Source: a virus
Lineage: Duplodnaviria; Heunggongvirae; Uroviricota; Caudoviricetes
Virus record (IMG/VR): IMGVR_UViG_2648501730_000002
Span: 1 to 18,739 of that record
Reading direction: 5' to 3' (one strand)
DNA length: 18,739 nt
Positions within the stretch are counted from its first letter, which is position 1, and every line of letters starts with the position of its first letter. This document shows positions 15,201 through 18,200 of the stretch, one piece after another. A program made the position numbers.

Positions 15201-18200
15201 TGCAGCCGATACCATACGGCATTTAGCGGCATTCATCGTACACTCAACGGTTAGCTCTTCATTCGTGGCATTCACCTGAAAGGTCCGGGAGTGTAATTGC
15301 GTACATTTACCACTGAACGAACCTTCAACAAGAACACGACCACGCTGCAAAATACGGAACGGAATTGTTCCCTGAAAAGGCTTTACGGTTACCAGTAATT
15401 TCTTCATGCATTCTCCGGATAACAAAAATACTAGTTAATACACTGAGTACGGATATATTCCTGAAGCATTCTCAATGCAGCCTGGTCGCTGATGATTCCG
15501 TCTCTGATACCGAGAACGTTTCGTCCAGCAACCGGAGAGAGTTCGACGGCGGCATCATTGCCCACGCCGGAGGTGCCGGTGGCTTCACGCACGGTACCGG
15601 AGCAGGTGGCGTTGATCCGCAGGCGCTTACGACCAGCGGCAACATCAGCACGCAGAGTTTCATTTTCAGCTCTCGCATCGGCTAATTCCCTCGAGTATTT
15701 TGCATCGAGCGCAGCAACATCGCGCTGGCGCACCTGCATATCAGTAATGGTTGCGTTTGCCAGCTCCAGCTCTCTGGCTTTTTTATCGCGCTGCGCTTTG
15801 TAGGTGATGGCGTTATCGCGGTAATGATTCAGCCCCAGACTAAGCGCACCACAGACCACCAGCAGAATAACGGTAAACGCGGAAAGCATTCGGTTTATGC
15901 TCACCCCAGCAGCCCCGACGAAGATAACATCATCCAGCCCATGGAAAGAAAAAGAGCAACCAGCATTAGTGAAAATGAAATGCCGACGATTACACAGAGG
16001 ATCTTCGCCAGCATTATGAGTTTGTCTGACATGTTTAATCCTCTTCACGATTTCAACGCAATGACCAGTTTTGCCAGCCCATACAGCATCGGAGACACAG
16101 CAATACCGACCGCCACCCACTTAATAGCAAAAGCCTGTGCTCTGCTGATGTCATCAGTTACTGGCGCTTTCAGTTCAAGGCCGTTTTTCATAGTCAACCT
16201 CAACAGAATTCGTTTATACTTTTCCATGTTCTCCCTTGCCTTATCCAAGGTCAGAAACACAAAACCCCGCTTGCTGCCAACAAACGTGGTTTTTACTTTT
16301 ATTCACTTAGGTTTTGCCAGTTCGCAGGATTTCGTGTTATCCGTCCGCGTTGGCCAACGTCATTTTTCAGCAAAATATTCTGCTTATCTGTCGATACCCC
16401 AGCACGCCAGCGCGCTCTCCTGGTCACGACGGGATACCTGACCATAACAGTTATTTGAGCGGATACGGCAGTCTCTGCCACCGTCTTTAATCCACCAGCG
16501 AATCGCCTCGCATGCACCCCGGCGATCGCCTGCATTAATTCGTTTATAAAACGTCGACGGGAAACACTTACCGGGGCCAATGTTATACGGGCAGAATGAC
16601 GCGATCCCCGCTTTCTGGGGTTCAGTCAGTGGCACTTTGATGTTTTTCTCCACCCATGCCAGCGCCTTATCACGTTCGATGGCGTTAACCTGGTCGCATT
16701 TCTCCTTCGACAACTTCATGCCCGGGACGACAGGTTTACCATCCACCAGAATGGCACCGCGACAGATGGTCCAGATACCCGCGCCATCACGGTATGCCGT
16801 GGTGTGGTTACCTTCCTTTTCATCCAGAAACTGGTCGAGAATGTCAGGCGCAGGCGCACCAGCGGCAATCAGCGCCAGAACGGCAGCCGACAGGCCGTAT
16901 TTGATTTTGGTGTTCATGGATATTTATCAGGATTTATCGGTTCCGAATCCCTGGATATGTTAAGTCTTCAGCCCGCCAGTGGTGGGCACTGGTGTTTTAC
17001 CTGATGGCTGAAATATATCTGACAATTCCCGTCGAGGATTTAGCAATGTATAACGATGAACATAAATATACCGCCTGCATGCAGGCCATGAATGAACAAT
17101 TTAAATCAGCATTCCTTAAACTCATTCAGCAAAACCACGAAGCAGTAAAATCCATTCAGGCTGAGCCGTATGGACACCTCACACCACCAACTCTCGACAT
17201 TATGTCCAGAATATTAACACCAGCCATGCTTCTACGTCTGAAAGACAATATAAATGACTGGTTAAACGAAGAATTAAACTACCTTGAATGTGAGTGGGAT
17301 CATCATTACGCCAAATCACAAAAAGAACGCATCTTCCGTCGATTATCCGGCAACAGATAACGAGCCAGCTTATATACGTCCTTTAAGATAAGTCAGTCCT
17401 GGATGAAACCAGTAAGCCGGCACTTTTTTAAAGGGCGGATTATCAAAATCACGAAGAAGAGCCTCCCGCACAACTGCATCCTTGTCCGCACCACTGGCCA
17501 GCGCTTCAATCTCAGCAGCTACCTGCAGATATCCCATGCAACGACCAATGCGCTTCATTAGTCCCTGCTTTTTATTGTTCTTCAGGTAATCAATGGCAAA
17601 TTCAATGAGCGCCTCACTGTGCTGGTGCGATGCTGGTGTTACTTTTCCATCTTCACGGATCGTGATATTCCAGTCATCGCTTGTCACAATAAAAGATGGC
17701 CGATTATCCCCCCATTCCTGGTCTTTATCCGGTGCAGACGCAATAAAATAACGTTTATTGCCTTCCTCTCCGGCACTTTTAACTGTAATGGAGTACTTTT
17801 CTGACAATGCGGTCGGTAAAAACTTTTCCTGCAAAATCTTCGCAAAGGTCCTGCGAGCAATTTTGATGCAATCATCGTAAAACGCTGCTTCCTGCTCATC
17901 GCGGCGTTTTTTTTCATCTTCAGAAACCATCAGCACCGACAGTTTTTTATTCAGTTCAGTGATTTCATTTTCCAGGCAACTTATGCGCTGATTCATTTCT
18001 TCATGGTTCATCGTCTACTCTCCCCGCGCCGCCTTACGCCGGTCTTCTCTGATTTTGAAATACAGGTTCGTCAGGTACGTCAGCAGACCAAACAGCAGAC
18101 TCCCCAGCACGCCTATTGCCACCCACTGGGACGGAGAGACTTTGTCCAGCAGCTGCAGTAACCAGTATCCCGTCCCCACCGCTGACGTGGTGTATGACAC

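Follow-up and report, generated by a model that had tools for sequence, protein, structure and literature searches.

A viral DNA of 18,739 nucleotides (IMG/VR virus record IMGVR_UViG_2648501730_000002, class Caudoviricetes; the whole stretch is called here the window) carries, between the holin gene (S) and the endolysin gene (R) of its lysis cassette, a block of two genes on opposite strands, referred to as X and Y. In the window, this block fills an accessory slot that is recurrent and highly mosaic in those Escherichia lambda-like prophages that have a Qin/RrrQ-type endolysin. The position of Y in E. coli is a cargo-exchange site, at which at least six unrelated opposite-strand genes are found, and this appears to be undescribed in the searchable literature. 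The same holds for the conservation of the convergent X/Y pair in Salmonella prophages, where it lies upstream of the holin. The explanation that we favor, and to which we give an even chance, is that within this recurrent slot X serves as a late cytoplasmic accessory protein acting on a host target, while Y is a cargo product made in the lysogen that acts on the conserved C-terminal module of X (module C). The features of the block are as follows.

18015-18230, minus strand: S21-type class II holin (pinholin), 71 amino acids (aa); PF04971, E 4e-32; phrog_9876/phrog_20 'holin'.
18018-18025, minus strand: Shine-Dalgarno sequence of X, GGGGAGAG, within the last holin codons and 8 nucleotides (nt) 5' of the X ATG.
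17370-18011, minus strand: X, soluble, 213 aa; phrog_1085, E 2e-101.
17046-17360, plus strand: Y, soluble, predicted five-helix protein, 104 aa; phrog_1853, E 8e-47.
17034-17038, plus strand: Shine-Dalgarno sequence of Y, GAGGA, which serves the 104-aa start.
16384-16917, minus strand: RrrQ-type lysozyme, 177 aa, with an Ala/Gly-rich, weakly hydrophobic N-terminus; PF00959, E 1e-24; phrog_7 endolysin.
About 15431-15900, minus strand: Rz/Rz1; PF03245.

Read along the minus strand, the order is holin, X, (Y on the plus strand), lysozyme, two small open reading frames (ORFs) and Rz/Rz1. The matches to PF04971, PF00959 and PF03245 and the lysozyme N-terminus MNTKIKYGLSAAVLALIAAGAPAP place the block in a lysis cassette; class II holin is also the RefSeq annotation of a 98%-identical copy of the window holin, and from MNTKIKYGLSAAVLALIAAGAPAP and what is known of R21-type enzymes we take the lysozyme to be a putative signal-arrest-release (SAR) endolysin. 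An initial annotation of the window had described a two-gene block between a pinholin and its SAR endolysin, and all of its features were recovered where it had put them. The distance between S and R, given there as about 1.1 kb, was measured as 1097 nt from the holin stop TAG (18017-18015) to the lysozyme ATG (16917). X starts 3 nt past the holin stop, behind the strong site GGGGAGAG, and because the same sequence precedes the endolysin ATG in loci where S and R are adjacent (L089 from Kluyvera and L079 from E. coli), X has taken over the position and the ribosome-binding site of R. The stops of X and Y meet 9 nt apart on opposite strands, so the two genes are convergent, as had been noticed. 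X had also been described as soluble with a coiled-coil-like N-terminus; accordingly, residues 3-64 are predicted to form two long helices, and no membrane segment was found in X or in Y, both of which are hydrophilic overall (maximum 19-residue Kyte-Doolittle values of 0.76 and 0.94, respectively). RefSeq calls Y as a 118-aa form that starts at 17004. Relatives have lost this upstream ATG or have it in another frame, so that it is the 104-aa start that is conserved; its GAGGA is kept in L081 and L050, with an equivalent GAGGGA in the Salmonella locus L157. The lysozyme has no Shine-Dalgarno sequence within about 15 nt of its ATG (16918-16945, minus strand, ...CCTGATAAATATCC-ATG). In the Qin prophage of K-12 the stop of ydfR overlaps the start of rrrQ by 4 nt, which suggests translational coupling; coupling between X and R is impossible in the window because the Y cassette lies between them.

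To place the block among related cassettes, the gap between holin and lysozyme was measured in 148 loci encoding an S21-type holin, i.e., 80 from IMG/VR and 68 from one genome per species, with the following outcome by lysozyme type.

Lysozyme at least 84% identical to that of the window: gap filled (313-1319 nt) in 68 loci, genes adjacent in 3.
Lysozyme 60-84% identical (Kluyvera, Enterobacter, Phytobacter, Kosakonia, Raoultella and others): filled in 0, adjacent in 26.
Lysozyme of another type (<45% identical): filled in 1, adjacent in 35.

With this endolysin type in Escherichia, a filled S-R junction is the rule. The expectation that the endolysin directly follows the holin in such cassettes therefore holds for other genera and other lysozyme types and fails for this endolysin type in Escherichia, where 68 of 71 junctions are filled; the comparison with related prophages that had been proposed as a check gave adjacent S and R without the cassette at all 26 loci of other enterobacterial genera. 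By megablast, at least 80% of 16300-18400 is present in 85 of 5,426 complete E. coli genomes (best 98.3%) and the segment was also found in four phage records. Annotations of Stx2-converting phage 86 (orf5/orf6) and of Stx2_12E129 phages show the gene order S-X-Y-R, and K-12 Qin has essQ-ydfR-rrrQ. The instance in the window is one of many near-identical copies that are already annotated in public genomes. The initial annotation had counted the block as its strongest candidate for an undescribed accessory module; X and Y do form a conserved module that recurs in Salmonella, but the arrangement is neither undescribed nor unusual (phage 86, Stx2_12E129, K-12), being in large part a standard one with existing annotation.

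Among the close counterparts of the layout is Stx2 phage 86 (NC_008464), which has the identical series of S, a YdfR-family gene, a convergent 104-aa gene and R. There, Stx2-86_gp06 ('hypothetical protein') is 68% identical to Y, and the C-terminal 150 aa of Stx2-86_gp05 ('YdfR family protein') match X at 63% identity overall. The 268-aa Stx2-86_gp05 consists of a DUF1327 domain and module C with no coiled-coil module (module B), unlike X, which consists of modules B and C. In K-12 Qin, YdfR (PF07041) occupies the same slot, from the S21-type holin to the RrrQ-type lysozyme, on the same strand and in the same late operon. K-12 YdfR lacks modules B and C and X lacks DUF1327; X is homologous to the non-DUF1327 part of longer YdfR-family proteins. 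In addition, K-12 Qin has no opposite-strand partner gene, unlike the X/Y arrangement. In the window, K-12 Qin, Stx2 phage 86 and the 68 filled loci, the family member lies in the late operon beside the lysis genes and on the same strand.

We further analyzed the domain content of X. Residues 1-213 align to positions 117-296 of the 296 positions of phrog_1085 (E 2.1e-101, 340 bits), and PF07041 proteins of 287-296 aa can be aligned to 99% of the length of X with an identity of about 60%; 268-aa forms give 80-87% identity over the C-terminal 69% of X. Over its whole length X is thereby homologous to the C-terminal two thirds of proteins named 'YdfR family / DUF1327 domain-containing'. DUF1327 itself (PF07041, about 93 aa, N-terminal) was not found in X, for which a Pfam scan to E 0.1 returned a sub-threshold Relaxase_C match only, and in the alignments the start of X falls after the DUF1327 region. 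Judged by these alignments, X is a long-form YdfR-family protein without the N-terminal DUF1327 domain. The initial annotation had placed neither protein in a family; X is now assigned to phrog_1085 and the long form of YdfR and Y to phrog_1853, although both remain functionally uncharacterized, as it had said. Homologues of X fall into 189 clusters, and all the clusters with a source name are from E. coli.

Alignment resolves the family into three shuffled modules: A, which is DUF1327 and alone makes up K-12 YdfR; B, a coiled coil; and C, the conserved C-terminal module. The forms seen are A, A+B, B+C (213 aa, i.e., X, and also 185 aa), A+C (268 aa) and A+B+C (287-296 and 333 aa). X contains two of them.

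17820-18011, minus strand: module B of X, aa 1-64; two long, coiled-coil-like predicted helices with the motif RRDEQ-AAFYD-C.
17373-17714, minus strand: module C of X, aa about 100-213; conserved family core.

The helices of module B span residues 3-27 and 31-64 in the AlphaFold2 (AF2) model, with a predicted local distance difference test score (pLDDT) of about 76-79 over the first 20 residues. Module B is homologous to the C-terminal part of a 211-aa DUF1327 protein of PhiR5_1, is matched by phrog_2091, phrog_36381 and phrog_15975 (X aa 1-62), and has been shuffled onto DUF1327 proteins in other prophages. Module C, of which phrog_26186 matches X aa 152-213, carries the motifs H-x-x-x-I-I, KRxGRxMxxLQxAAxIE and a tail of the form PPFK..W..PG.YLK.R. 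Relatives from E. coli, Salmonella and metagenomes, with identities of 30-57%, share its invariant residues; among those conserved in all are H131; K153-x-x-G156-R157-x-M159-x-x-L162-Q163-x-A165-A166; and P193-x-K195...W201...P204-G205...Y208-L209. A profile search of 1.84 billion representative proteins gave 43 matches for the X family, and because all the distant ones (E 1e-25 to 1e-10) have module C after a DUF1327-like N-terminus and a coiled coil, A+coil+C is the ancestral architecture. In the slot the forms range from a 103-aa DUF1327-only protein to 333 aa, and also include 114-aa stubs, a gene with a frameshifted tail (L139) and other remnants. A separate arrangement was seen in one IMG/VR contig (L016; 2703718769_000010, gap positions 676-1225), in which X (213 aa) is followed first by a second, 75-aa DUF1327-like gene (PF07041, E 2e-8) and next by a convergent 105-aa cargo gene.

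This mosaic raises the possibility that X is a functionless, truncated relic of a long YdfR gene and Y a chance or dying ORF, so that the block would be harmless debris. The missing N-terminal domain of X points that way, as do the many truncated and deleted forms in the slot (114-aa stubs, L162, the frameshifted tail of L139, P0198) and the lack of any promoter or terminator for Y in a scan of 16300-18739. Coding conservation, however, speaks for two working genes. In hundreds of member sequences the B+C form is a full-length ORF that has a clean ATG and, before it, a strong ribosome-binding site. The pairwise ratio of nonsynonymous to synonymous substitution rates (dN/dS) is below 1 for both genes. 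Between diverged copies it is 0.33-0.52 in the Y frame, less than in any of the other five frames, and the C-terminus of X gives 0.18-0.54. Intact X homologues were found at 34-36% identity, all in Salmonella, and intact Y homologues at 41-51% identity, mostly in Salmonella; in the latter (Salmonella and contig L153) the ORF has no indels and the ribosome-binding site and leader are conserved. The structural model of Y is also confident. Both ORFs look like real genes under purifying selection, and we consider decay a rather improbable account. The block is compositionally foreign, as the initial annotation had noticed from its AT-richness: the G+C content of 17046-18011 is 43.2% against 55.0% for the window (standard deviation 4.0 for 966-nt windows), and this is the lowest-GC 966-nt stretch of the whole window.

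The favored reading, in which Y acts on module C, draws on how the two genes travel together. Y is matched by phrog_1853 with E 8.4e-47 (residues 13-121 of a 122-aa ORF on profile positions 51-158 of 159) and its relatives are few: a single-sequence search gave 12 clusters, all from E. coli, and Y was present in 4 of 50,697 phage records. Its AF2 model (pLDDT 84.9; predicted template modeling score 0.79) confidently predicts a five-helix bundle with helices at 2-26, 32-39, 47-56, 59-76 and 86-102. A contig that is of unknown origin (L153) carries a 297-aa long-form YdfR gene and, converging on it, the gene of a Y homologue of 111 aa (41% identity, no gaps), and a profile including this homologue led to Y homologues of 105-106 aa in Salmonella enterica. 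These are convergent with abutting long-form YdfR genes (254, 262 and 192 aa, with module C), separated by a 19-nt gap or overlapping by 4 nt. In every locus examined, comprising six combinations of lineage and architecture, intact Y adjoins an intact module C gene, and Y-like sequences that do not are truncated remnants only (P0195, P0198). These last were considered as counter-examples, i.e., Y without an intact module C gene, and were rejected, both being deletion remnants. In P0198 (L164, 167-598) the Y N-terminus is fused to a tail resembling the antisense of a DUF4406 gene, with no long-form YdfR gene adjoining. In the other remnant, L162 (3501-4292), one deletion across the convergent junction truncates both genes, leaving a 207-aa YdfR-family product without the C-terminal motif and an 85-aa Y whose tail is read from antisense X. 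Module C genes are often found without Y (L022/L039/L071, the L041 cluster, L028/L077 and L154-L156). Because intact Y always abuts an intact module C gene and module C genes often lack Y, we propose that Y is no unrelated passenger and that it has module C as its target or as the means of its action, e.g., as a binding partner that neutralizes it. The pair of X, through its module C, and Y is old and moves as a unit.

Y was also considered as an obligate partner of X, which was rejected since X-type genes often lack it, and the pair as a type II toxin-antitoxin system, which was rejected since X and Y are convergent rather than co-directional and X-type genes with intact C are common without Y. 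Related to this is the idea that X is a late toxin freed by lysis and Y a constitutive immunity protein of lysogens. In pore-forming colicin operons a colicin gene is followed by an opposite-strand immunity gene and a lysis gene, so that a late-induced protein, a small opposite-strand gene and lysis genes stand in the same order and orientation as here, which we treat as a lead only. In favor of it, X, opposite-strand Y and the lysis genes keep this order in different genera, Y depends on X and not the reverse, and the Salmonella enterica subsp. salamae pair lies beside ArtA-like toxin genes in the same late region, as pairs in Stx phages lie near stx. Yet X and Y have no sequence or fold similarity to the colicin operon products, and no homology to colicin, pyocin or immunity families was found; pore-forming colicin immunity proteins are membrane proteins whereas Y is soluble; X is small and has no recognizable receptor-binding or translocation region; and the frequency of X-type genes without Y is hard to square with a self-toxic product, unless immunity were supplied elsewhere. 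We regard a toxin-immunity pair as very unlikely. As to the salamae contigs themselves (L166, 3501-6097, and L167), the X/Y-type pair directly follows the ArtAB-like genes, which encode a 270-aa protein with faint Pertussis_S1 / Scabin-like matches and a 106-aa product and which occupy the late region that holds stx in E. coli phages.

Returning to the accessory slot that we favor, its position in distant relatives was compared with that in Escherichia. There, the long-form YdfR gene also lies in the late region by the lysis genes, upstream of the holin in the interval from Q to lysis (L154-L161, L166). The order is long-form YdfR, a 189-aa gene, S21 holin, lysozyme and Rz in L154; replication genes, Q, an opposite-strand HicAB pair, long-form YdfR, holin and lysozyme in L155 and L156, with a DUF4406 gene directly before YdfR in L155; Q, a toxin-antitoxin pair (not called in L159), long-form YdfR, Y, holin, lysozyme and Rz in Salmonella L157-L161; and an ArtA-like toxin gene, a 106-aa gene, long-form YdfR (192 aa), Y and holin in S. 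salamae L166.

The family always adjoins lysis genes: in Escherichia it lies between S and R, and in Salmonella and other relatives it is found just upstream of the holin. This would also be expected if X were a co-translated cytoplasmic modulator of the pinholin or the SAR endolysin and Y tuned X. X uses the ribosome-binding site at the end of S, and because the cassette parts R from that site and R has no Shine-Dalgarno sequence of its own, the S:R expression ratio must change. Against control of lysis timing, X lacks a membrane segment, whereas the known holin regulators (antiholins and releasins) are membrane proteins; S21-type holins have their own dual-start antiholin; other genera use the same S-R pair without X or Y; and slot content that runs from a 103-aa DUF1327-only protein to 333 aa and to remnants is not what a finely adjusted lysis component would show. 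X lies where it can be translated along with the late lysis genes, and lysis itself does not require it. We consider a role in lysis timing doubtful, if less so than decay.

The part of the favored reading that concerns Y as exchangeable cargo comes from the comparison of filled junctions. The relevant elements are as follows.

16941-17350, plus strand: Y cassette, 410 nt, delimited by alignment with the Y-less loci L039 and L041, in which X abuts R; an imperfect repeat, CCGGATAATC / CCGATAAATC, lies at its ends.
16967-17012, plus strand: leader element; outer stem TTCAGCC (16967-16973) / GGCTGAA (17006-17012), inner stem CGCCAGTG (16974-16981) / CACTGGTG (16987-16994).
At the Y position of other loci, opposite strand: alternative cargo genes, i.e., phrog_2411, 90 aa; phrog_18136, 87/70 aa; phrog_2572, 86 aa; phrog_10490, 105 aa; and an unclassified 210-aa ORF.

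Among the 5,426 complete E. coli genomes, 95 have 80% or more of 16941-17360, and 248 more match it, the sampled ones carrying the first 46-56 nt only. In E. coli 08-00022 (CP013662) the identity over 16941-17360 is 100%. Five other opposite-strand genes occupy the Y position in other E. coli loci. They and Y have no detectable mutual relationship, and remote homology among the six cargo types was rejected (hhalign probabilities all <5%). The leader precedes five of the six types, i.e., Y and all others except phrog_2411, whose loci have a different hairpin at that position; it is not present in cargo-less loci. In the cargo sense it reads TTCAGCC-CGCCAGTG-loop-CACTGGCG-N(10-25)-GGCTGA and is predicted to fold as two stacked stems. 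It was seen in the window, L016, L017, L055, L024, L061, L126, L157, L159 and L153, and is nearly invariant across E. coli, Salmonella and L153, although Y in the latter two is 41-51% identical to that of the window. Over ten sequences 93.5% of the cells are paired, and one compensatory and four G.U changes fit the cargo-sense strand. No Rfam match was found in 16300-18739, and the folding energy of the R-Y intergenic region was no better than that of shuffled sequences on either strand (z -1.35 and -0.70). A weak TAnnnT hexamer (TATGTT) lies 5 nt 5' of the leader in E. coli sequences, Salmonella L159 and L153. We also observed that the leader 3' arm overlaps an ATG-GCT-GA start, with a GGAGG site for it in Salmonella; in some loci a short upstream ORF begins at this ATG, and in the window its reading frame continues into Y.

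Extra genes amid phage late genes are known as morons, which are defined by a promoter and a terminator of their own. Like bor and lom, and like stx and nanS-p downstream of Q, X and Y are extra genes amid late genes with deviant composition and patchy presence; the G+C difference given above and the existence of Y-less and empty junctions bear this out. Y shares its opposite-strand orientation with bor, which in Stx2 phage 86 is on the opposite strand just after Rz. So far, a consensus scan gave neither promoter nor terminator for Y, and X, with no independent signals, joins the late operon. A shared leader before exchangeable cargo has not been described for morons, as far as the searchable literature shows.

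An exchange site of this kind is also what one would expect if the slot were a defense hotspot, with Y alone or X and Y together guarding the lysogen against infection by other phages or superinfection. Variable hotspots of anti-phage genes are established in P2-like prophages and P4-like satellites (PMC9122126), and there, too, unrelated cargo genes take each other's place at one constant site flanked by conserved phage genes. The swapping of at least six unrelated cargo genes at one position, five with a shared leader, fits this picture, as do the AT-rich composition and the antisense placement of Y relative to the late operon, which would be expected of a gene expressed in the lysogen; the phrog_10490 cargo of L016 (105 aa) gave a weak, partial match to the PADLOC candidate PDC-S51 (E 1.3e-5, 60/376 positions). 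In contrast to the P2/P4 case, the phage type is a different one, the position is inside a lysis cassette, and the cargo consists of single genes of 86-210 aa with no known defense domains. In PADLOC-DB 2.0, X had no match, the best match for Y was Cas6b at E 0.015 (noise), that for the L153 relative of Y was at E 0.023, and the Salmonella and metagenomic relatives of X and Y had no credible match. No nuclease, NTPase, TIR, SIR2 or membrane domain was recognized, no promoter was found for Y, and X, being placed for late expression, cannot act in the lysogen. Phage defense, one of the functions suggested by the initial annotation, thus gained nothing specific in its favor, and we think it unlikely, if the least so of these alternatives.

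We come back to the late accessory protein and its lysogen-made partner. As we see it, X would share the Q-dependent late transcript with S and R, have its translation start from the site at the end of S, and be a soluble cytoplasmic protein of the last lytic phase; because it sits in the late operon, X should not be made in the lysogen. By analogy with K-12 YdfR, which binds the catalytic half of RNase E in two-hybrid and pull-down experiments and may bind RNA (PMC13232886), X might act on a host cytoplasmic target via module C. Y, which is antisense to the late lysis transcript, would be translated independently from a transcript of its own, made most probably in the lysogen, and convergent late transcription would silence it after induction. 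The anatomy, homology, distribution, pair conservation and cargo exchange of the slot are direct observations, whereas we infer the timing of expression, the target of X and any X-Y interaction; within the proposal, anatomy and evolution are firm and the biochemical steps weak.

Several results weigh against this explanation. No function-giving match for X or Y was found in Pfam, NCBIfam, PADLOC or the Protein Data Bank (PDB), or by fold. The AF2 model of X is poor (pLDDT 53), too poor for a fold search. A consensus scan of 16300-18739 gave no sigma-70 promoter, and no intrinsic terminator was found after Y, so that expression of Y in the lysogen is putative; a sigma-70 scan upstream of Y in the Salmonella and L153 loci likewise gave nothing convincing. 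Covariation in the leader was not beyond that of shuffled controls for the ten sequences, and the structure is for that reason conserved and foldable rather than proven. The part of K-12 YdfR that binds RNase E, residues 1-72, is module A (PMC13232886), i.e., the part that X lacks, and because DUF1327 is the sole part with experimental data, the analogy may not transfer to X, whose target may differ. Finally, X can do without a partner, and for X and Y to be inherited together, close physical linkage could be reason enough. Other searches were also negative: PDB searches with profiles of X, Y and module C gave nothing below E 0.01, the distant relatives and alternative cargo genes had no credible match in Pfam, NCBIfam or PADLOC, and the literature, searched by gene name, accession and PHROG id and for genes lying between S and R, gave nothing beyond the paper on the RNase E interaction. 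In these comparisons X and Y match no known defense, toxin-antitoxin, bacteriocin or holin-regulator family.

A bolder version, which we offer as a speculation with a minor share of our confidence, is that the holin-endolysin junction in Escherichia and the Q-to-holin position in Salmonella form a dedicated exchange site, in which a shared promoter/leader would drive small genes in the lysogen. Y, the ancestral occupant, would then be a lysogen-made antagonist or immunity partner of the late effector X, making the two a new effector-neutralizer pair, similar to a toxin and its immunity protein, that convergent transcription connects across the lysogeny/lysis switch, and the other cargo genes would be a reservoir of lysogen-benefit or anti-phage functions.

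Other parts of the window and of the survey gave additional observations. The endolysin-Rz junction (15901-16260, minus strand) is filled too, by a 71-aa ORF with a hydrophobic C-terminus (16045-16260, phrog_1115) and a very hydrophobic 43-aa ORF (15901-16032); elsewhere, this junction holds the antirepressor gene ant in Stx2 phage 86 and four other small genes in PhiR5_1. Further dips in G+C content lie downstream of Rz at 14600-14999 and 15200-15499 (0.42-0.44 in 300-nt windows), near a 110-aa minus-strand ORF (14890-15222), and may be other inserted genes between the lysis and packaging modules. E. coli-type holin cassettes also turned up in records assigned to unrelated taxa, namely L088 (a 376-nt contig labelled Xanthomonas pisi) and metagenome-assembled genomes of Bacillota (L095/L107), Nanosynbacter (L099), Veillonella (L105), Segatella (L122) and Geobacteraceae (L127); contamination or wrong binning of contigs is the most likely reason, and these taxa are probably not true hosts.

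The arrangement in the window is thus an ordinary one for E. coli prophages, and few unexplained genes of Shiga-toxin and other lambda-like prophages are as widespread as those of the X/Y type. They belong to the one transcript with strong expression shortly before cell lysis, in the company of stx in E. coli and of ArtA-like toxin genes in Salmonella, and the binding of K-12 YdfR to the catalytic half of RNase E (PMC13232886) is the first biochemical handle on the family. The new leads are that X and Y are kept together from E. coli to Salmonella and that the Y position exchanges at least six unrelated genes, five of them with one leader. If the cargo genes are lysogen-expressed protective functions, the slot would be a new place to look for such functions in pathogenic E. 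coli, and if X alters host RNA decay or lysis timing, it would have a bearing on toxin release.

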